Source of the DNA: an uncultured virus (IMG/VR IMGVR_UViG_3300037488_001694)
Taxonomy: Duplodnaviria; Heunggongvirae; Uroviricota; Caudoviricetes
Virus record (IMG/VR): IMGVR_UViG_3300037488_001694
Length of the DNA stretch: 64,000 nucleotides
Direction: 5' to 3' (one strand)
Part shown: piece by piece, positions 13,601 through 64,000 of the stretch
Layout of the letters: every line of letters begins with the position of its first letter
Numbering within the stretch: position 1 is the stretch's first letter
Notes under the pieces: model-generated
Databases searched by the model: none
Seen by the model: the letters and a program-made list of their open reading frames with translations, nothing else
What the model was told of the DNA's origin: nothing
Made by a program: the position numbers and the translations under genes

Positions 13601-14518
13601 ATGAAAGATTTAATAAGATTAATATTAAGGGAAGAAACTGAAACAAATATGTTTAAAGGGTTTGATGTATCAAAATTTAAGAATCAGGATCCGCCAGATA
13701 ACGAAAGTGAGGAAACCAAAAAAGAAATAAAATACTTACGATCAATTAAATTAAATAATAAATTCTTTAAGGATAAAGATGATATCTTGGAAAACTTCAC
13801 AGATTTTTTGGATGAGAAAGAAGTTAAGTATGACAAAGAACTTTTAAAGAAATTGATTAATAACTCCAAAGATATTATTTTAATATTAAAAGATCACTAT
13901 AAAAGACCAAGACCGTTTAAATTAGATAAAACATTTAAGGATCCGGCATTAAAATCAACCACAGGTTATTCTTATCCATCAGGACACTCAACACAATCCA
14001 ATTTGGTTAGCATGGTGTTAGGTAAAATGTATCCCAAATATAAGAAAGATTTTATTAAGATTGCGGAAGACATTATGTATTCAAGACAAATGGCCAAAGC
14101 ACATTACCCATCAGATATAAAGTTCGGTAAGAAATTGGCAACGGCATTGTTTAATTATTTGGTTAATAACAATCTTATTAAAGGTAATATAAATGAGAAT
14201 AATGATAAATTAACAGGTAGAAGATTATTATATATAGCGGATGAATACCTTGAAGATAATTTAGATCCAAAGGATGTATGTAATTATTGGACAACAGATG
14301 AGGCAACTCTTTATGTAAACGAAACAATAGGTGAAATTACAAGATATATAACAGATAAAATTTTTGATGTTAGAAACTATGGTCTTGATAATAGTGATGA
14401 ATGGGGGAGAATTTTTGATCTAACATACGGTCTTCTATTAGAGTTAAACTACGACCGTAAAGTTAGGGATTTCTTTTATGATGCAATCGGTAATTGTGAA
14501 CAACATCTCCTCCATTAA
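13601..14518 (+). CDS. tagged PAP2-superfamily phosphatase plus C-terminal acidic module
   Basis: KxxxxRPRP, SYPSGH, SRxxxxxHYPSD catalytic motifs; start reassigned to MKDLIRLILREE. Confidence 0.88.
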   Translation: MKDLIRLILREETETNMFKGFDVSKFKNQDPPDNESEETKKEIKYLRSIKLNNKFFKDKDDILENFTDFLDEKEVKYDKELLKKLINNSKDIILILKDHYKRPRPFKLDKTFKDPALKSTTGYSYPSGHSTQSNLVSMVLGKMYPKYKKDFIKIAEDIMYSRQMAKAHYPSDIKFGKKLATALFNYLVNNNLIKGNINENNDKLTGRRLLYIADEYLEDNLDPKDVCNYWTTDEATLYVNETIGEITRYITDKIFDVRNYGLDNSDEWGRIFDLTYGLLLELNYDRKVRDFFYDAIGNCEQHLLH

Positions 14519-14538
14519 CAATGGAGGATTTTTTTTTC
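14508..14538 (+). terminator. intrinsic terminator
   Basis: tcctccatt/aatggagga stem followed by T8. Confidence 0.85.
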
Positions 14539-15985: not shown

Positions 15986-15989
15986 ATAG

Positions 15990-16017
15990 ATCCTCCACTA
16001 ACAATGGGGGATTTTTT
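15990..16017 (+). terminator. intrinsic terminator
   Basis: atcctcca...tgggggat plus T6. Confidence 0.8.
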
Positions 16018-20631: not shown

Positions 20632-21153
20632 ATGAAAAAAGTTATAAGATTGACAGAATCTGATTTATTGAGAATTGTAAAAAGGATTATTAAAGAGAAT
20701 GAGAACTCATCTGAGATTGATAAGGTCTTAGATAAGATAAATAAGTATGGGAAAGAATATTTAACTTTTAGGGAAAAACAAATTCTTGATGAACCTGACA
20801 ATACAGATTATAAATTTTTGGGTGGGGATAATGCACATGAGTTTATTTCATTACTTGTTAAAAATAATTTGGTTGATGTTGATGACATGATTATTTATGG
20901 TGAAAATGAGGTTATCTATGGACCTATGGATTTTGATAGTACTATTGAACTTGTTTTTATAACGAATAATTTGGAGAATGGTGTTGTTAGGTTTATGGCA
21001 TCAAAACATACCCCATATTATATAAATGATTTTGAAAATATTGAACGTAGAAAGGAGATGCTCAAAAAAATTCATATGGTAGAAGAATGGGGTCGTGTAT
21101 TAGGTATAGATTTTCAAGTTGATGGTATGTTGGATCTTAGTAAACCCCTTTAA
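20632..21153 (+). CDS. tagged protein with IDKVLDKI..YG.E.LT..EK motif
   Basis: MKKVIRLTESDL tag; the same subdomain occurs in 34945..35448; TATTTATA at 20611-20618. Confidence 0.85.
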   Translation: MKKVIRLTESDLLRIVKRIIKENENSSEIDKVLDKINKYGKEYLTFREKQILDEPDNTDYKFLGGDNAHEFISLLVKNNLVDVDDMIIYGENEVIYGPMDFDSTIELVFITNNLENGVVRFMASKHTPYYINDFENIERRKEMLKKIHMVEEWGRVLGIDFQVDGMLDLSKPL

Positions 21154-24079: not shown

Positions 24080-24940
24080 ATGAAAAAAGTAATAAGATTA
24101 ACTGAATCCGATTTGGCTCGTATCGTTAAACGAGTTATCATGGAAAAAACCATGGCACCTGAACCTGTGGTTGGTGGATCACGTACTATAAAAATTTATT
24201 TTACAAAAGAAGGTGATTCTATTTTACATCCTCAAACAATTTCGGAAATTAAAGATTGGTTAAGACCTTATATTAAAAGTTCAATGCCAACAATCAAACA
24301 ATTTTATAAAGATCGCCAATTTAAATTACCTAAATTTATTACCGTTGGTGCTAGTACCACAAGTGGGGGAAGTTATGAGGCAAACTCAAAGGTTGCTCAA
24401 GGTAGATTATATGCGGTTCTTAATGTAGTAAGAGAATTATTAGCGGAAATGGGGATTAATCAAGAAATGGCCCAAAGATTTGTTACAACAAATACAAACT
24501 ATAATTATACCCCAACATCCGTTGATGCTAATCTTTTTGATAGAAAAAGTGTGAAACCTATGGATAAAGAAAGATTTGCTTATATTACTGTAAATGAATT
24601 GAATACTGTTGGTTTAGGTAAAACCCAAATTGGAAATCTTGAAGATACTATGTTGATTGCAAGAGGTTACAACATCAATCCTGATGAAGAAGGTATTGCA
24701 AAAGCAATTTGTAAATTACAAACATATTCTGATATAACAGATTTGGATTATGAATTAAGAAGTTATGGTGGTCTACAAGGATTTATTAATCAAACCATTA
24801 CCGATGGGTTTACATCTTATGATAGTGACACACAAGAAAGAACACAAATTAAATTTTGTTTGAATAGAGCGTCAAAAACAAGTGGTAAAGGAGATATTGC
24901 AGCAATTGCTGGTGATAAACTTACACTAATAATAAAATAA
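24080..24940 (+). CDS. tagged hypothetical protein (OmpA-C-like pattern, tentative)
   Basis: MKKVIRLTESDLARIVKRVIME tag; ITVGAST...NSKVAQGR...R pattern. Confidence 0.75.
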   Translation: MKKVIRLTESDLARIVKRVIMEKTMAPEPVVGGSRTIKIYFTKEGDSILHPQTISEIKDWLRPYIKSSMPTIKQFYKDRQFKLPKFITVGASTTSGGSYEANSKVAQGRLYAVLNVVRELLAEMGINQEMAQRFVTTNTNYNYTPTSVDANLFDRKSVKPMDKERFAYITVNELNTVGLGKTQIGNLEDTMLIARGYNINPDEEGIAKAICKLQTYSDITDLDYELRSYGGLQGFINQTITDGFTSYDSDTQERTQIKFCLNRASKTSGKGDIAAIAGDKLTLIIK

Positions 24941-55774: not shown

Positions 55775-57519
55775 TGGAAAAAAGAATAGTAAATGTTGCG
55801 TCCTATAATAGGATTGATTCGTTGGTGAGGTCTTTGGAATCAATATATGATCAATGTGATGAAATTAATGTATGTTTAAATAATCACAATGGTGAGATAC
55901 CTGATATTTTATATAGAGATAAAGTAAACTTATTCTTTACCGATAACTCAAAAGGGGATGCATTTAAATTCCTTATGCTTGAAGAAAGTAATGGGTATTT
56001 TTTAACAATAGATGATGACTTAATATACCCTGAAGGTTATGTTGACTATATGGTGAATAAATGTATTGAGCATGGTAATAAAAAAATCATAACACTACAC
56101 GGTAGAAGTTTTTCATCATTTCCAATAAATAGTTACTATAAATCGGCAAGTGAGAGATATGCTTGTTTAGAAAATGTTAAAAATGACGTAATCGTCCAAT
56201 TTGGGGGTACAGGAGTAATGTGTTTTCACACAAGTTTATTAAAAGTTTCAATTGATGATTTTTTATATCCAAATATGGCGGACATATGGATAGGTAAATT
56301 CGCAAAGCAAAGAAACATACCTATTTTATGTTTACAACATTCAAAAGGATATATTGGGTATATACATCAAAATACAACTATATTTAATGAACATTCAACA
56401 AATGATAGGGTTCAGACATTTGTGGTTAATAGATTATATGGTATTAATATTAAATACGATGTTTCCATTATTATCCCAACATTCCAAAATGTTAATTATA
56501 TTGATGATTGCTTAAAATCCATTGAGGTAGCAATGAAGAATCATATGTGTGAAATTTTAGTTGGTATAGACGGATGTAGAGAAACTTTAAACCATTTGAA
56601 GTCATCTAAAGTAAATCCATATACTTCTGTTTATTATTTTGAAATAAATGAAGGTCCGTATACAATAAAGAACACATTGGCCAATATTGCAAAATCAGAT
56701 AATTTAATCTTTTTTGATTCAGATGACTTAATGGGTGAAAATATGGTAGATTATGTAATGAAGTCATTAGATCGTTATGTTTGCGTAAAACCTAAAATGT
56801 ATAATTTTGATAATGAAACAAATAAACCAATATTAAATTTAAACACTCATGGTGAGGGTGTTTTCGCAATTAAAAAAGATTTATTCATCACAATGAATGG
56901 ATTTGAACCATGGATGTGTGCCGCGGATTCTGATTTTATGGGTAGGTTATATAAAAGAAAACCGGCAATTATAGGGTCCCCATCCCCACTATTCTCAAGA
57001 CGAATACATGACAATAGTTTGACAACCAGGAAAGAGACAGGTATGAGATCAGTAATGAGACACCAATATGCAAAAATATCAAAAAATAAAAAAGGACACG
57101 GTAATCCGAATATATTACACACAAGAGATTTTACACTAATTGACAATATTTCATTTTTTAGTGATTTTGATAATTTCCTACAAAGTGAAATGATGTTAAA
57201 GAAAAATAACGCTCAACTTTCAGTGTTGTCTATCTTATCTAAAGCACCAAGAAAAGTAGTTGAGAAAACGTTACCAAAAGAAAAAACTTCTATTGAGGTT
57301 GGTTATGATGCAATTAGTCATTTACTTAATAAACCACACCCTATGATCCCAAAACCTAAAGTTAATAATCAACCACCACCACAAAACAACCCTCAAGCAA
57401 TACCTCAACCACAGAAATCAAATTCAAATAGAGATACTTTACAAAAGTTATTTTTAAGAAAAACTCATAATAAAAGTGATGCTCCTTACATGAATATTGG
57501 GGGAAAATTAGGTAGATAG
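55774..57519 (+). CDS. two-domain glycosyltransferase
   Basis: N-domain LTIDDDLIYP/GGTG; C-domain VSIIIPT, GIDG, FFDSDD. Confidence 0.9.
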   Translation: MEKRIVNVASYNRIDSLVRSLESIYDQCDEINVCLNNHNGEIPDILYRDKVNLFFTDNSKGDAFKFLMLEESNGYFLTIDDDLIYPEGYVDYMVNKCIEHGNKKIITLHGRSFSSFPINSYYKSASERYACLENVKNDVIVQFGGTGVMCFHTSLLKVSIDDFLYPNMADIWIGKFAKQRNIPILCLQHSKGYIGYIHQNTTIFNEHSTNDRVQTFVVNRLYGINIKYDVSIIIPTFQNVNYIDDCLKSIEVAMKNHMCEILVGIDGCRETLNHLKSSKVNPYTSVYYFEINEGPYTIKNTLANIAKSDNLIFFDSDDLMGENMVDYVMKSLDRYVCVKPKMYNFDNETNKPILNLNTHGEGVFAIKKDLFITMNGFEPWMCAADSDFMGRLYKRKPAIIGSPSPLFSRRIHDNSLTTRKETGMRSVMRHQYAKISKNKKGHGNPNILHTRDFTLIDNISFFSDFDNFLQSEMMLKKNNAQLSVLSILSKAPRKVVEKTLPKEKTSIEVGYDAISHLLNKPHPMIPKPKVNNQPPPQNNPQAIPQPQKSNSNRDTLQKLFLRKTHNKSDAPYMNIGGKLGR

Positions 57520-57556
57520 ATTTGACTTAACGATTAATTATTTTTATAATTGAATT

Positions 57557-57733
57557 ATGTATGTAATAGTTAAACACGTAAAGACGAACAATAACAGAAT
57601 TTTACCTGTTATTATGTTAGACACCCAAGGTGAGCTATGGGAGTTTGATAATAAAGATAAAGCACAGGAAATGGCTAACATCTTCAACACTAATACCGAT
57701 TCGGGACATAAATACGAAGTTAAGAAGGTATAA
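57557..57733 (+). CDS. small hypothetical protein (58 aa), not in ORF track
   Basis: MYVIVKHVK...LPVIMLDTQGELWEF...YEVKKV; TTGACT-N18-TATAAT upstream. Confidence 0.75.
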   Translation: MYVIVKHVKTNNNRILPVIMLDTQGELWEFDNKDKAQEMANIFNTNTDSGHKYEVKKV

Positions 57734-57740
57734 ATAATAT

Positions 57741-57814
57741 GGTCCGCTAGCTCAGCTGGATAGAGCAACTGCCTTCTAAGCAGTAGGTCTCAGGTTCGAA
57801 TCCTGAGCGGATCA
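57741..57814 (+). tRNA. tRNA-Arg(TCT)
   Basis: Canonical cloverleaf; anticodon loop CT-TCT-AA. Confidence 0.95.
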
Positions 57815-57944
57815 CTAATAATAATGTTATGGATATTTTTGAAGAATTACATAACGAATTCATTAATTCTGAAGATTATGTCTGTTATTTAGTTGAGATT
57901 AATGAATACCGTTACGATTTATAATAACATGATATTTATTATAT

Positions 57945-58412
57945 ATGGAACTTAATGAAGAGATATATAGAATAAAATCATTACTAAAAGAAAATTCTGA
58001 CCCTTATAAAATTAGGGTTGTAAGTAATATAGAGAGTGATAGAGGATTTTGCGTATATTATTTAACAGAAAATAATGATGTTATAGGTGTTGTGACTTTA
58101 ACCGATCTAAATAAAGTTTTATCTAATAATGAGTTTAATGAAGACATAAAAGTTTTACATGAAAATTACGATAACTCAAAAGATACAGTTTATATACACT
58201 CAATTGTTGTTGAATCTCCGTTTAGAAAACAAGGATTTGGTACAAAATTAATAAAGGAATGTGAAACTATTGCAAGAAATTCTGGTTATAAGTACATAAC
58301 TGCAATTGTTAAAAAAAACAATATACCATCTCAAACCATGCTTGATAAATTAGGTTATAACAAATATAATTCTAACGATAAGAAAGATTTATTTATTTTA
58401 GACATTGACTAA
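57945..58412 (+). CDS. tagged GNAT acetyltransferase
   Basis: MELNEEIYRIKSLLKE tag; V...FRKQGFGTKL, N..S....KLGY. Confidence 0.88.
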   Translation: MELNEEIYRIKSLLKENSDPYKIRVVSNIESDRGFCVYYLTENNDVIGVVTLTDLNKVLSNNEFNEDIKVLHENYDNSKDTVYIHSIVVESPFRKQGFGTKLIKECETIARNSGYKYITAIVKKNNIPSQTMLDKLGYNKYNSNDKKDLFILDID

Positions 58413-58464
58413 ATGGTCTTTTTTAATTATTAATTACACAGAAATAAACAAATAATCACAAAAA

Positions 58465-59094
58465 ATGGAATTATTAAAATCGTTAGAGTGGAGATACGCC
58501 ACCAAGAAGATGAATGGGGATAAAGTCCCACAAGATAAATTAGAAAGAATTTTGGAAGCAACAAGATTGGCTCCAAGTTCTTATGGGTTAACACCATATC
58601 ACGTAATTGTTGTTGAGGATCAAAAATTAAAAGAAGAATTACAAGGGGCGTGTTACGGACAAACTCAATTAAGTGAATCATCAGCAGTATTGGTATTTGC
58701 TACATGGGATAATATTACAGATGAGTCAGTAGATATTTACATCCAGGAGACGGCAAACCAAAGAGGGATCAGTACTGATATGTTAGGTGAGTTCAGTGGT
58801 ATGATCAAAGGATCTTTATCTAATATGACGCAAGATCAAAAAATTGCTTGGGCACAGAGACAAGCATACATCGGATTAGGATTTGCATTAGTTGCAGCAG
58901 CAACAGAAGAAGTGGATTCAACTCCAATGGAAGGATTTGTTCCATCATCAGTGGATACAGTATTAGGATTAGAAGAATTAGGATTAAAATCAGTTGTAGT
59001 TCTTCCATTAGGATATAGAGACACTGAAAATGATTATTTAGCGTCTTTAAAGAAAGTAAGATGGGAAAATGAGAAATTTTTCATTAAAAAATAA
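58465..59094 (+). CDS. nitroreductase (NfsB-like NAD(P)H-flavin oxidoreductase)
   Basis: WRYATKK, APSSYGL.P, DSTPMEGF, LGYR, KVR. Confidence 0.93.
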   Translation: MELLKSLEWRYATKKMNGDKVPQDKLERILEATRLAPSSYGLTPYHVIVVEDQKLKEELQGACYGQTQLSESSAVLVFATWDNITDESVDIYIQETANQRGISTDMLGEFSGMIKGSLSNMTQDQKIAWAQRQAYIGLGFALVAAATEEVDSTPMEGFVPSSVDTVLGLEELGLKSVVVLPLGYRDTENDYLASLKKVRWENEKFFIKK

Positions 59095-59124
59095 AAAAAC
59101 ACTTGTCAATTAAAAATAAATTCC

Positions 59125-59172
59125 TAAATTTGTACAAGAATTAAAACTTTTAGGAAAACTGATATATTTATA
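59125..59172 (+). promoter_or_regulatory. tandem promoters for tRNA array 1 leader
   Basis: TAAATTTG (59125-59132) and TATTTATA (59165-59172). Confidence 0.6.
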
Positions 59173-59183
59173 ACAAAACAAAA

Positions 59184-59294
59184 ATGAAAGCAACTAATAA
59201 ACATATGGTCATTTGTAATCCGAGCACACAGTGGTCGTTTAATAGCTATAGAACGCTTCGTTCACATATTAGGGCATTTTCATTTATGAGTTGA
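59184..59294 (+). CDS. putative attenuator leader peptide 1 (36 aa)
   Basis: MKATNKHMVICNPSTQWSFNSYRTLRSHIRAFSFMS; A-rich initiation context; ends 31 nt before a terminator. Confidence 0.75.
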   Translation: MKATNKHMVICNPSTQWSFNSYRTLRSHIRAFSFMS

Positions 59295-59325
59295 TACAGA
59301 TTAACTAAAAATATAAAAGGAATAT

Positions 59326-59359
59326 AAGACCCGAACTCAAATCAAGTTCGGGTTTTTTT
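59326..59359 (+). terminator. intrinsic terminator (attenuator 1)
   Basis: acccgaact/agttcgggt stem plus T-run, immediately before the first tRNA. Confidence 0.9.
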
Positions 59360-59373
59360 ATACCCAAAAAATC

Positions 59374-59445
59374 GGTCTCTTAGTATAGTTGGTAATATCC
59401 CGGCTTTGTAACCCGGAGTCATCAGTTCGAACCTGATAGAGACCT
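59374..59445 (+). tRNA. tRNA with TGT anticodon (Thr), C31.C39 mismatch
   Basis: ggtctct/agagacc acceptor; loop TT-TGT-AA; T-loop TTCGAAC. Confidence 0.8.
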
Positions 59446-59456
59446 CAAAAGAAAAA

Positions 59457-59469
59457 GTTCTTTGACATA
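59457..59469 (+). promoter_or_regulatory. rrn boxA-like antitermination site
   Basis: GTTCTTTGACATA; identical copy at 63288-63300. Confidence 0.75.
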
Positions 59470-59481
59470 TTGGCCTTAAAT

Positions 59482-59552
59482 TGTCTCGTAGCCTAAAGGC
59501 AGGGCATCGGATTTTGGCTCCGAGTGTGTTGGTTCGAGTCCAGCCGAGACAA
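59482..59552 (+). tRNA. tRNA-Gln(TTG)
   Basis: U1-A72 acceptor; loop TT-TTG-GC. Confidence 0.92.
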
Positions 59553-59559
59553 CAATAAT

Positions 59560-59643
59560 GGAAGAGTAATCACAACGGCTTGTGATCCCGTCTTGAAAAC
59601 GGCGAGTACTGAAAGGTATGGGGATCGACACCTCACTCTTCCG
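59560..59643 (+). tRNA. tRNA-Ser(TGA)
   Basis: Long variable arm; loop CT-TGA-AA; G73. Confidence 0.88.
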
Positions 59644-59652
59644 CATTAATAA

Positions 59653-59727
59653 CGGGATGTGGACTAATTGGTAAGTCACCACTTTTGGGAAGTGGGCATC
59701 ATCCAGGTTCGAGTCCTGGTATCCCGA
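59653..59727 (+). tRNA. tRNA-Pro(TGG)
   Basis: C1-G72; loop TT-TGG-GA. Confidence 0.95.
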
Positions 59728-59732
59728 CTAAC

Positions 59733-59808
59733 GTCTTCGTAGCTCAGTTGGTTTCAGAGCACTCCGCTTTTAACGGAGGGGTCACAGGTTCGAACCCTGT
59801 CGGGGACA
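59733..59808 (+). tRNA. tRNA-Lys(TTT)
   Basis: Loop CT-TTT-AA. Confidence 0.93.
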
Positions 59809-59814
59809 CAATAA

Positions 59815-59888
59815 GCACTCTTAGCTCAGATGGTAGTAGCGGTTGTTTTACATACAACAGGTCACAGGTTCGATCCCTGTAGAGTGTA
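59815..59888 (+). tRNA. tRNA-Val(TAC)
   Basis: Loop TT-TAC-AT. Confidence 0.93.
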
Positions 59889-59893
59889 CAAAA

Positions 59894-59963
59894 GGGAGTA
59901 TCGGCAGGGTCCTGATCGTGTCTGTAAAACATCGTCTTGGTGGTTCGATTCCATCTGCTCCCA
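59894..59963 (+). tRNA. non-canonical tRNA with GTA anticodon (Tyr-like)
   Basis: gggagta/tgctccc acceptor, T-arm, loop CT-GTA-AA; aberrant D-arm, no long V-arm. Confidence 0.7.
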
Positions 59964-59972
59964 CAACAAAAT

Positions 59973-60044
59973 GGACTGGTAGCTCAGAGGTAGAGCAGGG
60001 AGCTGTTAACTCCAAGGTCATAGGTTCGATCCCTATCCTGTCCG
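59973..60044 (+). tRNA. tRNA-Asn(GTT)
   Basis: Loop CT-GTT-AA; G73. Confidence 0.92.
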
Positions 60045-60049
60045 CAACC

Positions 60050-60123
60050 GCTCATATAGCTCAATTGGTGAGAGCGCCGACCTGATACGTCGGAGGTTAT
60101 AGGTTCGAGTCCTGTTATGAGCA
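60050..60123 (+). tRNA. tRNA-Ile(GAT)
   Basis: Loop CT-GAT-AC. Confidence 0.94.
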
Positions 60124-60127
60124 CAAT

Positions 60128-60216
60128 GGAAAGTAATCCCTGAAGGCGACGGGACTTGTTTGCTAAACAATGTGATCGGTGAGAAACCGATTGTGGATCG
60201 TTACCACTGCTTTCCT
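60128..60216 (+). tRNA. tRNA-Ser(GCT)
   Basis: Long variable arm; loop TT-GCT-AA; atypical T-loop. Confidence 0.85.
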
Positions 60217-60222
60217 CAACAA

Positions 60223-60290
60223 CCCGTATGATCAGGGATCAAAGTTGGCTCATATCCGACTTTAGAGTGGTTCGATACCACTATACGGGA
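60223..60290 (+). tRNA. short non-canonical tRNA with CAT anticodon (Met or Ile2)
   Basis: 68 nt; cccgtat/atacggg acceptor; loop CT-CAT-AT; minimal D-arm. Confidence 0.72.
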
Positions 60291-60297
60291 CTTATAT

Positions 60298-60371
60298 GGT
60301 GTATGTAGCTCAGTTGGCAGAGTGCTTGATTGTGATTCAAGAGGTCATGGGTTCGACCCCCATCATACACA
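60298..60371 (+). tRNA. tRNA-His(GTG)
   Basis: Encoded G-1; loop TT-GTG-AT. Confidence 0.92.
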
Positions 60372-60372
60372 C

Positions 60373-60501
60373 AAATAGTTTACAACGGACAAGGCTTAGG
60401 CAAGTGAGTTGAGAATGAGTCGTAGGAGATATAATCGTTTGTACTACAAAAAGTTTGATACAAGAGATTGGTGGGATGCGAGTGGTTGACCAAAACTATT
60501 T
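60373..60501 (+). ncRNA. candidate structured ncRNA A
   Basis: 9-bp closing stem aaatagttt/aaactattt filling the His-Arg spacer. Confidence 0.5.
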
Positions 60502-60503
60502 AT

Positions 60504-60576
60504 GTCCTCGTAGTTCAATGGAAGAGAACCTGTGGCTACGGACCACAAGATGGGAGTTCGAATCTCTCCGAGGATA
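60504..60576 (+). tRNA. tRNA-Arg(ACG)
   Basis: Loop CT-ACG-GA. Confidence 0.94.
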
Positions 60577-60577
60577 C

Positions 60578-60732
60578 AAAAGATGATACAAGGCGTAGAA
60601 TGACAGACGTGGAGAGACGTGTCGCAAGGGTACACACTAAGGATAAGTAATAATGCTCAACTCTCTTATGGTGTGTGAAGCGTCGTAGAAATACGAATCC
60701 CAGATTCCTGATAAAGTCATTTATCATCTTTT
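60578..60732 (+). ncRNA. candidate structured ncRNA B
   Basis: 11-bp closing stem aaaagatgata/tatcatctttt; inner aatgac/gtcatt and acacac/gtgtgt. Confidence 0.65.
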
Positions 60733-60736
60733 ATTT

Positions 60737-60808
60737 GCCCCTTTCGTATAACGGAAGTACAACGCTCTTCTAAGGCGTCAGGTCGGAGTTCGAATCTCTG
60801 AGGGGGTA
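60737..60808 (+). tRNA. tRNA-Arg(TCT), second divergent copy
   Basis: Loop CT-TCT-AA. Confidence 0.9.
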
Positions 60809-60871
60809 CTAAACTAAAAAATGCTCAATAAACAAGGTTAGTTTATCGTAGCAAAAATAGGTTTATTATAC

Positions 60872-60942
60872 GCGTCTCTGGTGTAACGGTAGCATGATGG
60901 ATTCCAAACCCATCGGTCAGGGTTCGAAACCTTGGGGGCGCG
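60872..60942 (+). tRNA. tRNA-Trp(CCA)
   Basis: Loop TT-CCA-AA; G73; A31.C39 mismatch. Confidence 0.92.
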
Positions 60943-60987
60943 CAAATTAAATTTGGTAGATTGAAAATAAATTTGTATCTTTGTCTT

Positions 60988-61491
60988 ATGAAAACAAATT
61001 TACCATACTGTTCAAATAACGTTGGAATCATTGGTTATCAGGATTCCGAAATTGCGAAAAAAGAAAAAAACGATTGTGTTGTGAGAGCATTTGCGTCGTC
61101 ATTTGAAATCCCTTATGATAAGGCGCACAAATACGTTAAAGAAAAATTTGGGAGAAAGGATTATTGTGGTACTTATGGTACCGTTTTTAAAATGGTTGAG
61201 TTGGCAAAAAAACAAACTCAAATAAACCATAAGAAGATTAAACCAATTGGGACTTCCAAAACGATAAGTAATCACAAAGTTTATACGTTAGATTATACGG
61301 TTAAAGTAAAAGGTAAAAAGGTTAATAGACAAATGACCGTTGGGACATTTATAAAAGAAAACCCAATTGGAACATTTTTTGTGTTAGTTTGTGGTCACGC
61401 TTTTACCATTAAAGATGGGATCGTACATGGTAATTATGAAGATTCAACCAAAAAGAGAAAAATTATGAAACACGCATTTCAAATTAAATAA
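60988..61491 (+). CDS. hypothetical phage protein (NDCVVRA...H motif)
   Basis: Start reassigned to MKTNL, after TATCTTTG (60976-60983). Confidence 0.85.
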   Translation: MKTNLPYCSNNVGIIGYQDSEIAKKEKNDCVVRAFASSFEIPYDKAHKYVKEKFGRKDYCGTYGTVFKMVELAKKQTQINHKKIKPIGTSKTISNHKVYTLDYTVKVKGKKVNRQMTVGTFIKENPIGTFFVLVCGHAFTIKDGIVHGNYEDSTKKRKIMKHAFQIK

Positions 61492-61564
61492 GGACTGGTA
61501 GCTCAGTTGGTAGAGCGTTGGATTGAAGATCCAAGCGTCGGGGGTTCGACTCCCTCCCGGTCCA
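61492..61564 (+). tRNA. tRNA-Phe(GAA)
   Basis: Loop TT-GAA-GA. Confidence 0.95.
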
Positions 61565-61579
61565 CAAAAACCAAATAAT

Positions 61580-62032
61580 ATGAACAGAGTATTTAGAACG
61601 GTACAAGGCGAATCGGTAGATGTGGTATCTCACACCTTGGATGTTTTAAACGAATGTCCATATGTTGAGGTTCATATTGGAACGGATTCACAGAACCACA
61701 GAAGAAGTACGGTATACGTTACCGTAATTGCTTACCGATATGGTAACAGAGGTGTTCATTACATCTTACATAAACAAAAAATAAAAAAAATTAAGGATAA
61801 GTGGACGAGATTATGGAATGAAGCTGACTATTCTATTGAGGTTGCGGAATGGTTAACCAAAAAGGTGAAGGTTCAAGTTGAAATTGACTTGGATTACAAT
61901 AGTCAGGAAAAACACTTCAGTTCAAAACTTGTTCCTCCTGTTGTTGGGTGGGCAACGTCTCTTGGTTACAAGACAAACATTAAACCTGACAATCAAATAG
62001 CAACTAAAGCGGCAGATCATCACTGCCGTTAA
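61580..62032 (+). CDS. RNase H-like YkuK (DUF458) family protein
   Basis: IGTDSQ...RLWNEA..S...IDLDYN...KP...A...AD; start reassigned to MNRVF. Confidence 0.85.
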   Translation: MNRVFRTVQGESVDVVSHTLDVLNECPYVEVHIGTDSQNHRRSTVYVTVIAYRYGNRGVHYILHKQKIKKIKDKWTRLWNEADYSIEVAEWLTKKVKVQVEIDLDYNSQEKHFSSKLVPPVVGWATSLGYKTNIKPDNQIATKAADHHCR

Positions 62033-62033
62033 T

Positions 62034-62105
62034 GGTCCTATGGCCGAGAGATTTAGGCGCCGGTCTGCAAAACCGGTCAGATTGGTTTGATTCCAATTAG
62101 GACCT
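62034..62105 (+). tRNA. tRNA-Cys(GCA)
   Basis: Loop CT-GCA-AA; U73. Confidence 0.92.
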
Positions 62106-62114
62106 CAACAAAAT

Positions 62115-62188
62115 GCCCTCATGGCGGAATAGGTATACGCGTGTGATTTAGGATCACAATTTTACAGGTTCGAGTCCTGTTGGGGGTA
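62115..62188 (+). tRNA. tRNA-Leu(TAG) lacking long variable arm
   Basis: Loop TT-TAG-GA; 5-nt variable loop. Confidence 0.9.
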
Positions 62189-62203
62189 CAAATAAAGGTA
62201 AAT

Positions 62204-62542
62204 ATGTTAAGAGAATTTAAATTCTATAAAGACGAGGGGACGTGGTATGTGGATCTGCCCGAATGGGAAGGAAGTCGGGCAGATCTGGCAATGGTATCAG
62301 GTGCCGATATAATGTTAGATATTGTATCTCAGGGTGAAAACGATATTAAAGTTTTATTGTCAACAGAAGATTTTGATGGATCCAATAGATTAGAATTTTT
62401 AAGAGAAGCCCCTGAAGTTGGTGAAGGATCTTGGTATTTAATGAAAACATATAAGGGTATTGAATATAATTTGGAACTATGGTTATGTGATGTAACTATA
62501 TTTGTATTTGGGGGATTTCCTAAAAATATTTACATATCATAA
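62204..62542 (+). CDS. hypothetical protein (DUF6717-like)
   Basis: WYVDLP...MVSGAD..LD...WLC.V..FVFG.FP..IY. Confidence 0.8.
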   Translation: MLREFKFYKDEGTWYVDLPEWEGSRADLAMVSGADIMLDIVSQGENDIKVLLSTEDFDGSNRLEFLREAPEVGEGSWYLMKTYKGIEYNLELWLCDVTIFVFGGFPKNIYIS

Positions 62543-62555
62543 CATATTTATTGAT

Positions 62556-63011
62556 ATGAAAAAAATAGTTAGATTAACAGAATCAGATTTAATTCGTTTA
62601 GTTAAACGAGTTGTTAAAGAAAATGAGGATGGATCCAAACCAGACATTTTAACTTACCTCAACGATAACTTCACACCAGACGGTGGATGGGATAATGAAA
62701 AATTCCAAGATGGTTGGATGAATGGTGAACTTACCGCTTATTATGTAAATGGTAAATTAGCATTTATTTATAACACTGAATTTGATGACGATGGTGGAGA
62801 GAGGGAATTTAATACATTAGTTGTTGGTCCTGAGGTATATGAAAAAATTAAGGAAATGTTTGGTAAAGGAGAATGGAAAGAAAGATTTACTAATTGGTTT
62901 AAAGGAAATACTCGTTTAAACGTTGATGATGTTGAAATGGACGACTTTAAAGGTATCTTTTCTGACTATGTAGATCCTTCTTGGGCTGATGACGAAAATT
63001 GGGATTATTAA
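62556..63011 (+). CDS. tagged acidic protein
   Basis: Start reassigned to MKKIVRLTESDLIRLVKRVVKE. Confidence 0.88.
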   Translation: MKKIVRLTESDLIRLVKRVVKENEDGSKPDILTYLNDNFTPDGGWDNEKFQDGWMNGELTAYYVNGKLAFIYNTEFDDDGGEREFNTLVVGPEVYEKIKEMFGKGEWKERFTNWFKGNTRLNVDDVEMDDFKGIFSDYVDPSWADDENWDY

Positions 63012-63080
63012 AAATAAAATAAAAAACTTGACACTTTCAAAAAGTATCATATATTTATAACAAAACATTAAAAAACGCAA

Positions 63081-63149
63081 ATGAAAAATTTACACATATT
63101 ATTGATAGGCGCGGATTTAGCTGAGACAACCTTCAAGGAGATGGTGTAA
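63081..63149 (+). CDS. putative attenuator leader peptide 2 (22 aa)
   Basis: MKNLHILLIGADLAETTFKEMV; preceded by TATTTATA (63052-63059); its 3' end is complementary to the terminator arm. Confidence 0.75.
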   Translation: MKNLHILLIGADLAETTFKEMV

Positions 63150-63170
63150 ATTTTTGTATATATGAAATTT

Positions 63171-63201
63171 AAAACCCATCTCCAAAAGAGGTGGGTTTTT
63201 T
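63171..63201 (+). terminator. intrinsic terminator (attenuator 2)
   Basis: aaaacccatctc/gaggtgggtttt stem plus T-run. Confidence 0.9.
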
Positions 63202-63262
63202 GATTTTATAAGTTTTTTTAAAAATATTTTACAAAGTGTTTGTCGGATTGAAAAATTCTACT

Positions 63263-63270
63263 TATCTTTG
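63263..63270 (+). promoter_or_regulatory. Bacteroidota -7 element TATCTTTG before tRNA array 2
   Basis: Matches TAnnTTTG; TTTG about 20 nt upstream. Confidence 0.65.
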
Positions 63271-63287
63271 TGGAACAAAAGAAAAAG

Positions 63288-63300
63288 GTTCTTTGACATA
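63288..63300 (+). promoter_or_regulatory. rrn boxA-like antitermination site
   Basis: GTTCTTTGACATA, 12 nt before the first tRNA. Confidence 0.75.
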
Positions 63301-63312
63301 ATGGTAAAAAAT

Positions 63313-63392
63313 GGTTCGGTGGTGAAATTGGTATACACGCTGCGTTTAAGCCGCAGTCCATACGGTTGTGGGTTCGAGTCCCACCCGGACTA
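63313..63392 (+). tRNA. tRNA-Leu(TAA)
   Basis: Loop TT-TAA-GC; variable arm present. Confidence 0.93.
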
Positions 63393-63401
63393 CAAATATA
63401 T

Positions 63402-63474
63402 AGCGGGATGTGGAAGATGGTTATCCGCTGGGTCTCATAAGCCTAGATCGCAGGTTCGAATCCTGCTCCCGCAA
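63402..63474 (+). tRNA. tRNA-Met(CAT), initiator-like
   Basis: A1.A72 mismatch; loop CT-CAT-AA. Confidence 0.88.
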
Positions 63475-63505
63475 CTAAAGAGTAAAACTTTTTATTCTTA
63501 AAAAT

Positions 63506-63644
63506 TTGATAGTGGTTTTCCCCACTCAACGGATGTCGACAATCCAGAGTGGAATCGGAATTCAGCACCCTTTCTGCCGAGGCCTCGTAAAACTACGATT
63601 AAGCAGTTAAGATTGGAGCGAGACGGGTACTCCATCACTATCAA
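63506..63644 (+). ncRNA. candidate structured ncRNA C
   Basis: Closing stem ttgatagtg/cactatcaa; inner ccactc/gagtgg and tggag/ctcca. Confidence 0.6.
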
Positions 63645-63653
63645 CAAAATTAT

Positions 63654-63734
63654 GCTGACGTACCAGTGGATGCTTATATCATCTATGCCTGTAGTGGTAA
63701 GTTTAAAACGTTGGTTCGAATCCAACCGTCAGTA
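63654..63734 (+). tRNA. tRNA-like RNA with TAT anticodon loop and rearranged body
   Basis: gctgacg/cgtcagt acceptor, perfect T-arm, ggatg-CTTATAT-catct arm, no D-arm. Confidence 0.6.
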
Positions 63735-63740
63735 CAATAA

Positions 63741-63813
63741 GCGGGAGTAGCTCAGTTGGTAGAGCTATAGCCTTCCAAGCTATAGGTCGCGAGTTCGAAT
63801 CTCGTCTCCCGCT
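63741..63813 (+). tRNA. tRNA-Gly(TCC)
   Basis: Loop CT-TCC-AA; U73. Confidence 0.96.
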
Positions 63814-63815
63814 CT

Positions 63816-63936
63816 AAACAATTAGTCGTACAAGGGCAACGCGAATACAGATAAGGGATACTACTCCACCTAATGGAAGCGGCCGATACATCCATAGGTC
63901 TACGAAGCCGATCGTAGTTGAGCCTACTAATTGTTT
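63816..63936 (+). ncRNA. candidate structured ncRNA D
   Basis: 11-bp closing stem aaacaattagt/actaattgttt; inner ctacga/tcgtag. Confidence 0.6.
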
Positions 63937-63941
63937 TTTAT

Positions 63942-64000
63942 GGGCCTGATGCCAACGGCAGGTCGACTGATTTGCAATCAGATCGTTTGGGTTCGATTCC
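63942..64000 (+). tRNA. tRNA-Ala(TGC), truncated by window end
   Basis: G3; loop TT-TGC-AA; T-loop TTCGATT. Confidence 0.85.

Follow-up and report, generated by a model that had tools for sequence, protein, structure and literature searches.

Leader open reading frames ahead of phage tRNA arrays: a candidate trp-type attenuator followed by a host rRNA boxA

Introduction

The trp, his, leu and thr operons and the multivalent ilvGMEDA operon have ribosome-mediated attenuators, and the Escherichia coli pheST attenuator, with its pheM leader, controls a cellular tRNA synthetase and senses a single amino acid. Here, we examine a related arrangement in a 64,000-nt stretch of DNA from an uncultured member of the Caudoviricetes (IMG/VR record IMGVR_UViG_3300037488_001694), the whole of which is called the window, where each of two tRNA gene arrays is preceded by a short open reading frame (ORF) and an intrinsic terminator. 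We lean towards reading these two ORFs, leader 1 and leader 2, as the leader ORFs of transcription attenuators, each lying between a promoter and a tRNA unit that bears a boxA.

With the leader-peptide attenuators of amino-acid operons (PMC1183508) the locus shares a short leader ORF, the mutually exclusive pairings 1:2, 2:3 and 3:4, a stop codon inside segment 2 and regulatory codons in and just after segment 1, and with the ilv and leu leaders in particular a mix of Leu and Ile codons. Unlike in those operons, the genes that would be controlled are phage tRNA genes rather than biosynthetic enzymes, about nine amino acids are mixed where the classical leaders have a run of one, and an rRNA-type boxA follows the terminator. 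The likeness to pheST/pheM is that a leader attenuator sits on decoding machinery cognate to its own codons, which there is a synthetase and not tRNAs. Leader attenuators at bmrCD and mef/mel(msrD) sense antibiotics (PMC4191407 and PMC4335068); in these too, a ribosome held in a short leader ORF turns off an intrinsic terminator, and they act as general sensors of slowed translation, but their trigger is a drug, their output a resistance pump or protection protein, and they involve neither tRNA genes nor a boxA. T-box riboswitches likewise choose between terminator and antiterminator by the state of a tRNA, but they read the uncharged tRNA directly and without translation, whereas the present leaders are ORFs, and 56000-64000 gives no T-box match at E up to 1.

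For antitermination, the nut sites of phage lambda are one point of comparison. rRNA operons, where boxA acts in antitermination within a boxB-boxA-boxC arrangement and with NusB/NusE (PMC10250234), are the other: the same spacer boxA stands at the head of long untranslated RNA genes in both, but the phage copy lies behind the terminator, not before it, and therefore cannot help polymerase past that terminator. Ribosome-mediated attenuation is thus known as such. Its use on phage tRNA genes together with a copied rRNA boxA appears undescribed, and a full-text search of a limited corpus, in the passages it returned, gave no description of leader-peptide attenuation of tRNA genes, cellular or viral.

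Results

The window derives from a freshwater Bacteroidota phage with a G+C content of about 30%, and near-identical DNA occurs in metagenomes of lake water, sediment and estuary. Deposited phages include no near match to it and no close cultured relative, a search for distant similarity returned matches at the level of tRNAs only, the best being Tenacibaculum phage Gundel_1, and a 46-nt stretch at the window end has no exact match among viral contigs. Relatives for comparison were contigs from IMG/VR and metagenomes, recruited via two array-encoded proteins and then via leader DNA patterns, and are cited by handles such as L003 where one has to be singled out. An earlier description of this DNA, the sequence-only reading, had listed two short ORFs with their codons and two terminators, all of which are present as listed (Table 1), and had proposed that both arrays share the layout promoter, short ORF, terminator, boxA and tRNAs. 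The shared layout stands for ORF and terminator; in array 1, the boxA sits after tRNA-Thr. The two modules also have in common an identical 18-mer (at 59162 and 63049) and a 69-nt stretch in which they are 71% alike.

Leader 2 is built like a four-segment attenuator. Segment 1 (AAAAAUUUACAC) is a perfect 12-bp complement of GTGTAAATTTTT (GUGUAAAUUUUU, 63144-63155), which is part of segment 2, while 63137-63144 (GGAGAUGG), also in segment 2, is a perfect 8-bp complement of 63176-63183 (CCAUCUCC) in the 5' arm of terminator 2, and in all variants the leader-2 stop codon falls within segment 2, two codons after GGAGAUGG. Over 35 distinct variants, the native duplex between segments 2 and 3, the putative antiterminator, has a mean energy of -13.5 kcal/mol, about equal to that of the terminator hairpins, compared with -5.5 +/- 2.4 for shuffled segment 2 and -4.4 for other windows of the leader-2 ORF. 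Leader-2 variants have two terminator classes, A and B, and exchanging partners between them weakens the duplex (A x A -12.8 vs A x B -7.6; B x B -13.4 vs B x A -11.0).

The pairing has been maintained through sequence change. In the alignment of the variants (A1), 95.7% of 280 antiterminator cells are standard pairs, a level reached by 0/500 shuffles, and four of the eight pairs are altered on both sides (as in 3/500 shuffles), although these shuffle counts are not probabilities because the sequences are related. Slid controls pair at 45-69%, a comparison that favours the tested structure, which was derived from the same sequences. The terminator 2 helix is paired in 95.8% of cells, and the antiterminator equals it in covariation. 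A single column of the 5' arm changes in concert with the ORF (U-A in 18, G-C in 14, unpaired in 3) and also with the 3' arm (A-U in 19, C-G in 16), which is the signature of two mutually exclusive helices and has forced a Met-to-Arg codon change in the leader-2 peptide. Further matched changes are GAAGAUGG with CCAUCUUC, GAAGAGGG with CCCUCUUC, and AGGAGGG with CCCUCC.

To follow the effect of a ribosome, it was modelled as a mask covering -15 to +12 nt around the first base of the A-site codon, an assumed footprint, and a state energy was defined as that of the terminator state minus that of the antiterminator state (in kcal/mol). Full-length minimum-energy folds contain the terminator and the 1:2 helix together in 35/35 variants, and when a ribosome stalls at codons 2-12 the 5' arm has 6 nt or more sequestered, again in 35/35. 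The state energy averaged over the 35 variants is -6.3 without a ribosome, rises to -1.0 for stalls at codons 2-12 and falls to -8.5 once the ribosome is on the stop codon. For leader 2 of the window itself, the value is -7 without a ribosome and between +1 and +2 with one at codons 1-3; codons 4-10 give -0 to +1, codons 11-15 give -3 to -4, and from codon 16 onwards it is -11; in the model, this profile is the trp pattern. Counting the 5'-arm bases sequestered before the 3' arm exists was too lenient a measure, since weak partners count, and was replaced by the state energies.

Several observations weigh against this reading of leader 2. Strong upstream complements exist for two of 11 control terminators as well (-13.5 and -12.2 kcal/mol), so that complementarity in a single sequence proves little and the case rests on covariation; in the alignment, three of the 35 variants (L166, L220, L224) pair worse and look like recombinants. 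The drop in state energy from early stall to stop codon is below 5 kcal in 10/35 variants, and a stricter threshold is passed by 21/35. With the last four codon positions occupied by the ribosome, only 4/35 variants have the 5' arm down to 3 sequestered nt or fewer, weaker alternative partners accounting for the others. Finally, pairing and gene order are observed, whereas translation of the leader, stalling and read-through are what we infer. Taking both sides together, leader 2 is well supported by computation as a trp-type four-segment attenuator on a phage tRNA array.

Pooled over 30 leader-2 coding variants, the sensitive stretch, codons 2-12, is 28% Leu (UUA 61, UUG 31, CUA 2), 17% Ile (AUA 41, AUC 14, AUU 2) and 15% Gly, whereas in the long ORFs of the phage UUR makes up 75% of Leu codons and AUA and AUU 39% and 50% of Ile codons. 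UUR, AUA and GGN are thus enriched in this stretch and correspond to tRNAs of the array downstream, which has Leu(UAA), Met, Ile(UAU), Gly(UCC) and Ala(UGC); Lys, Asn and His codons likewise occur within codons 2-12, however, and the leader does not follow arrays from which tRNAs have been lost. The first tRNA behind leader 2 is Leu(taa) in 20/35 variants, and tRNAs for Asp and/or Glu, checked in relatives only, lie within 3.5 kb behind leader 2 in 26/35, the closest relative included. The tRNA-like gene at 63654-63735 (also L001, 5323-5420) has an anticodon loop with UAU and is unusual in the length of its extra arm, and in many relatives ARAGORN labels the UAU-anticodon gene Ile(tat). In bacteria, anticodons that read AUA directly are uncommon.

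A different explanation of the modules is that they are ordinary small-gene cassettes, encoding small proteins from their own promoter and ending in their own terminator, with the tRNAs supplied by leaky read-through and internal promoters and the complementarity incidental. Units of promoter, gene and terminator do recur commonly along the window (between 14.5 and 36 kb there are about ten clear + strand terminators), and the phage promoter-like motif TATATTTATAA ahead of both leaders occurs in seven copies (18696, 20609, 22151, 24057, 49917, 59163, 63050), of which the five outside the leaders each lie upstream of an ordinary gene, with an ATG at most 30 nt away in four. The terminator of leader 1 in the window is like any other, both leader ORFs are open in all relatives that have them, and host-type promoter-like sites at 60953 and 63240 would offer internal starts. 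These two sites also count against the attenuators as the sole input to the arrays in the window, the first serving Phe, Cys and Leu(tag) and the second array 2. Here the sequence-only reading has to be corrected in two respects, as array 1 is not one unit, being broken by ORFs and by the site at 60953-60983, and in array 2 of the window the site at 63240-63270 lies between terminator and boxA.

In the relatives, however, the boxA begins at the last T of terminator 2 in 22/35 variants, and in 12/35 tRNA-Leu(taa) starts 26-32 nt after this terminator without a promoter-like site between, which leaves no room for a promoter; the array is then entered only through the terminator, and that those tRNAs can be transcribed in no other way counts against small-gene cassettes. 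The same applies to the first unit of array 1 in the window, from Thr to Trp: tRNA-Thr lies so close behind the T-run, with the boxA next, that the unit is reachable only through terminator 1. Both terminators show compensatory changes in relatives, in terminator 1 as CCCGAACT/AGTTCGGG, CCCGAGA/TCTCGGG and CCCTAACT/AGTTAGGG.

How the ORFs have evolved also bears on this explanation. Leader 1 is open in 70/70 distinct complete sequences (34-37 codons; 22 more copies are cut by contig ends) and leader 2 in 35/35 (22 or 24 amino acids), with all indels in both being multiples of three; leader 2 is missing from at least one relative, L003, whose second array stands behind a host-type promoter. The variable sites of leader 1 are spread evenly over the three codon positions (12/12/12), without the third-position excess of a small protein gene, and of its codon columns 19 are invariant at all three bases, two change only synonymously and 16 change the amino acid. 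Both leaders are rich in rare codons (leader 1 at the 2.7th and leader 2 at the 0.4th percentile of 968 36-codon windows of long ORFs). Neither the synonymous excess nor the typical codon usage of ordinary protein genes is found, and the C-terminus of leader 2 has undergone radical replacements (Met/Arg and Lys/Glu/Met) in step with the RNA pairing. An open frame combined with constraint at the RNA level is what is predicted for a regulatory leader. We had at an early stage taken the ORFs for plain small genes, since the leader did not track the tRNA sets, and dropped this view on the substitution pattern, codon usage and leader-2 covariation; as a full explanation of the modules, small-gene cassettes now seem to us quite unlikely.

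Conservation around leader 1 extends to the promoter, the untranslated parts, the terminator and the hairpin that holds the stop codon, the last found in relatives as GTTAAA/TTTAAC with one pair altered on both sides. This raises the further alternative that the promoter-to-terminator units are trans-acting small non-coding RNAs of about 120-190 nt with the ORFs as by-products, which would fit the conservation of untranslated nucleotides, the recurrence of structured folds and a substitution pattern that is not protein-like. By-products would hardly stay open in all 70 and 35 copies with indels in threes, keep their ATG at the distance from the promoter motif found in real genes and always place their stop codon inside segment 2, and a search of 56000-64000 against Rfam (E up to 1) matched no T-box or other family in the leaders. 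We regard this alternative as highly improbable.

The boxA-like elements would tie the attenuator reading to antitermination. The 21-mer common to both arrays has two matches in the window against 0.01 expected. Its 17-mer GTTCTTTGACATAWTGG occurs in at least 122 places in the genome collection, among the matches listed mostly in Bacteroidota records, and in 17/20 Bacteroidota loci checked its place is the 16S-23S spacer, downstream of the tRNAs there and 26-200 nt ahead of the 23S 5' end. The phage boxA is thus the spacer boxA of Bacteroidota rRNA operons, letter for letter, and from this identity it may be expected to recruit Nus factors and make polymerase resistant to termination. A Flavobacteriaceae genome bin (L070) has the 17-mer directly adjoining a tmRNA gene at its 5' end. 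Other tRNA units in relatives (L015, 7090-7320; L024, 2430-2640; L003, 7580-7880) have a host-type promoter, a GC-rich hairpin without U-run and a boxA variant (GTTCTTTGAAA or GTTCATTGAAA), then a conserved element, about 100 nt long, ahead of tRNA-His or Met, a layout that resembles an rRNA leader (boxB, boxA, boxC).

The corresponding evidence for leader 1 is much thinner. In the window, its terminator state is the more stable one by 6-11 kcal/mol wherever the ribosome is placed, and the strongest duplex of its 5' arm with upstream sequence (-6.1) does not stand out from those of 11 control terminators. Folds without the ribosome mask gave no consistent antiterminator for leader 1, and masked folds and state energies confirmed that the window version is weak. 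Among 68 leader-1 variants, 22 have a 2:3 duplex about as strong as the terminator (of the L014 kind, AGUCGAGGGU with ACCCGAGACU, and a few with GGUUAGGG and CCCGAACC), with mean state energies of -6.8 without ribosome, -2.8 with a stall at codons 3-11 and -6.4 on the stop codon. The other 46 are flat or weak, and a strict trp-type profile is passed by only 6/68; these figures, too, weigh against the attenuator. The model suggests that a usable switch has been kept in about a third of the leader-1 relatives, and the window copy is most likely a leaky or otherwise controlled terminator. For leader 1 in general, the attenuator reading is open, and for the window copy it is weak, so that the proposal of leader-peptide attenuators on both arrays holds in the anatomy and covariation of leader 2 and fails at leader 1 of the window, which has no antiterminator beyond what ordinary terminators show. 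An RNA-library contig (X19, record 25) spans 59199-59439, and with it leader 1, the terminator and tRNA-Thr, which is a weak hint of read-through of terminator 1, carried-over DNA being another possible source; the RNA libraries are assembled contigs from related phages (word share 0.06-0.11), which are unable to show transcript ends or levels and in which a lack of cover carries no information.

The sequence-only reading had gone further than attenuation, in proposing that each leader tests all the codon classes for which its own array supplies tRNAs, so that loss of any one tRNA, for example to a host anticodon nuclease, would stall the ribosome and open the array as a counter-defence sensor. 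The codon content of leader 1 is indeed singular. Its 36 residues draw on 17 amino acids, namely Ala and the 16 that array 1 serves; Gly, Asp and Glu are absent (the window array itself gives this 16 if a relaxed-threshold CAT tRNA-like gene is counted). All 16 without Gly, Asp and Glu would arise with a chance of 3e-6 under the window proteome composition, are found in 0/11,420 real 36-aa protein windows and, in six frames, in 8 of 26,873 stop-free 36-codon windows, all eight overlapping leader 1 (0/26,865 others), a match that was noticed after the fact and rests on one ancestral sequence. Coverage has been kept: all 16 are present in 50/50 distinct full-length leader-1 peptides, 14 of which are made of exactly those 16, whereas column shuffles never left all 50 complete (0/5000; mean 35.3 complete), and single losses of Val or Leu are offset elsewhere (V9N with S21V; L25F with R23L). 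Arrays with exactly the same 16 amino acids lie behind the leader in L032, L198, L229 and L230. Each of the 21 distinct peptides of leader 2 includes L, M, I, G, A, D and E (column shuffles all complete in 0/5000), and leader 2 prefers AUA over AUU, in keeping with the complementary codon set proposed for it.

Against this full model, the same leader-1 peptide heads reduced arrays of seven (L163) or 10 (L019) amino acids and, in L024, an array of Trp, Cys, Leu, His, Ile, Met, Glu and Asp, so the leader codon sets do not co-vary with the tRNA sets downstream as had been proposed. Nor is the exclusion of Gly, Asp and Glu a rule, as 15/50 leader-1 peptides carry one of them (at codons 28-29, once at codon 2), and 35/50 carry Ala, likewise unserved; leader 2 has Lys, Asn, His, Thr and Phe codons besides its complementary set. 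A stall at any one tRNA would not suffice, because the trp-type fold model favours read-through only within about the first dozen codons, a range that ribosome queues, which lie outside the model, might widen, and leader 1 of the window is without a usable antiterminator. The relatives, moreover, are close kin, and the coverage counts represent few independent events. As it was put forward, with stalling at any lost tRNA as a counter-defence sensor, the model seems to us rather unlikely. Sampling of every codon, co-variation and the nuclease trigger are not supported as stated, and it is the conserved 16/16 coverage that keeps them alive.

The remaining features of the two modules are collected in Table 1. 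Host-type promoter-like sites come from a pattern scan with what we take to be the Bacteroidota promoter consensus. The motif TATATTTATAA lies directly after a terminator in 2/7 copies and has an ATG within 10-21 nt in 6/7, and may define a phage-specific promoter class without upstream element; two members of a paralogous gene trio starting MKK(V/I)(I/V)RLTESDL (20632-21153, 24080-24940, 62556-63011) stand behind it. The two control terminators with strong complements are on the + strand at 14508-14528 and 15988-16014, with complements 100-120 nt upstream that may be chance pairings of CCUCC with purine-rich coding sequence or further switches. ARAGORN found tRNA-Arg(tct) at 57741, 17 tRNAs in 59374-62189 and three from 63313; relaxed thresholds add Ser(tga) at 59560-59644 and the tRNA-like genes 60223-60291 and 63654-63735, whose anticodons, by eye, are CAT and TAT, respectively. 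Four stretches between tRNAs (60373-60503, 60578-60736, 63476-63653 and 63815-63940; 125-180 nt) have no ORF and no Rfam match and may be unrecognised structured RNAs; the bin 60594-60747 has the top summed contig depth in RNA library X15. Most neighbouring genes compared with PHROGs have no family or one of unknown function; upstream of the tRNA region are a nitroreductase-family gene (58465-59094; PHROG E 8.5e-52) and an acetyltransferase-family gene (57945-58412).

Table 1. Coordinates in the window of the features of both leader modules and their tRNA genes
Feature	Position	Strand	Remarks
Host-type (Bacteroidota) promoter-like site upstream of leader 1	59103..59132	+	TTG-N19-TAAATTTG; pattern scan; kept in 18 distinct relatives' modules
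Phage promoter-like motif TATATTTATAA	59163..59173	+	10 nt ahead of leader-1 ATG
Leader ORF 1 (sORF1)	59184..59294	+	36 codons + stop, MKATNKHMVICNPSTQWSFNSYRTLRSHIRAFSFMS
Hairpin containing leader-1 stop codon	59289..59306	+	AGTTGAT-ACAG-ATTAACT; recurs in folds of 18 modules
Intrinsic terminator 1	59329..59359	+	stem 59329-59353 + T7
tRNA-Thr(tgt)	59374..59446	+	14 nt past T-run of terminator 1; no promoter-like site in between
boxA-like element 1	59453..59473	+	core GTTCTTTGACA; 21-mer common to both arrays
First tRNA unit	59482..60943	+	Gln, Ser(tga), Pro, Lys, Val, Tyr, Asn, Ile(gat), Ser(gct), CAT tRNA-like, His, Arg(acg), Arg(tct), Trp
Internal host-type promoter-like site	60953..60983	+	ahead of ORF 60988-61491, Phe, Cys, Leu(tag)
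tRNA-Phe, ORF 61580-62032, tRNA-Cys, tRNA-Leu(tag)	61492..62189	+	
Leader-2 promoter region	63028..63060	+	TTGACA-16-TATATT; includes phage motif TATATTTATAA; conserved in relatives
Leader ORF 2 (sORF2)	63081..63149	+	22 codons + stop, MKNLHILLIGADLAETTFKEMV
Segment 1	63084..63095	+	AAAAATTTACAC (AAAAAUUUACAC), codons 2-5; pairs with segment 2
Segment 2	63137..63155	+	GGAGATGG (GGAGAUGG, 63137-63144, codons K-E-M-V, antiterminator strand), then TGTAAATTTTT
Segment 3	63171..63183	+	terminator 2 5' arm, with CCATCTCC (CCAUCUCC) at 63176-63183
Segment 4		+	terminator 2 3' arm + T6
Intrinsic terminator 2	63171..63201	+	stem 63171-63199 + T6
Host-type promoter-like site between terminator 2 and boxA	63240..63270	+	in some relatives, not others
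boxA-like element 2	63284..63304	+	core 63288-63298
Array 2 start	63313..64000	+	Leu(taa), Met(cat), TAT-anticodon tRNA-like gene, Gly(tcc), Ala(tgc); Ala cut by window end, read by eye

Discussion

Leader 2 suggests the following mechanism. With no ribosome on the leader-2 RNA, segments 1 and 2 would pair and the terminator would form, and it would form again when a ribosome reaches the leader-2 stop codon and covers segment 2. A ribosome held in about codons 2-12 (AAA AAU UUA CAC AUA UUA UUG AUA GGC GCG GAU) would instead cover segment 1, leaving segment 2 free to pair with the terminator 5' arm, and polymerase would read on. It would next transcribe the boxA, presumably enter the Nus-dependent antitermination state of the host and run through tRNA-Leu(UAA), Met, Ile(UAU), Gly and Ala, and in relatives Asp and Glu. 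Output of array-2 tRNAs would then rise when the Leu(UUR), Ile(AUA) and Gly codons of the leader are read slowly and fall when they are read well, a supply-and-demand loop into which tRNA loss of any cause would feed.

Such a loop, in which pairing and gene order are observed and ribosome stalling is the conditional step, is a simpler reading than a link to anticodon nucleases, which as a trigger is conjecture. A broader view of both leaders would make them tRNA-supply sensors whose codon sets selection keeps equal to the amino acids of their own arrays (16/16 for leader 1; Leu(UUR), Met, Ile(AUA), Gly, Ala, Asp and Glu for leader 2), with matching replacement tRNAs switched on through the attenuator and a hijacked rRNA antitermination signal, including after attack by an anticodon nuclease or another tRNA-depleting defence. 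We hold this view to be doubtful. If such codon-matched sensors did exist, the phage would gauge, per codon class, whether the infected cell still decodes.

Phage tRNA genes are usually seen as fixed cargo that serves codon usage or replaces tRNAs cut by host defences, and almost nothing is known of the control of their expression. With about 230 nt between promoter and boxA, the module is short, and its natural compensatory variants make it directly testable with reporters. In this phage, a boxA copied from the host rRNA spacer would drive long untranslated RNA genes, and, if the attenuator reading is true, the phage tunes its tRNA supply via the very process that consumes tRNA.

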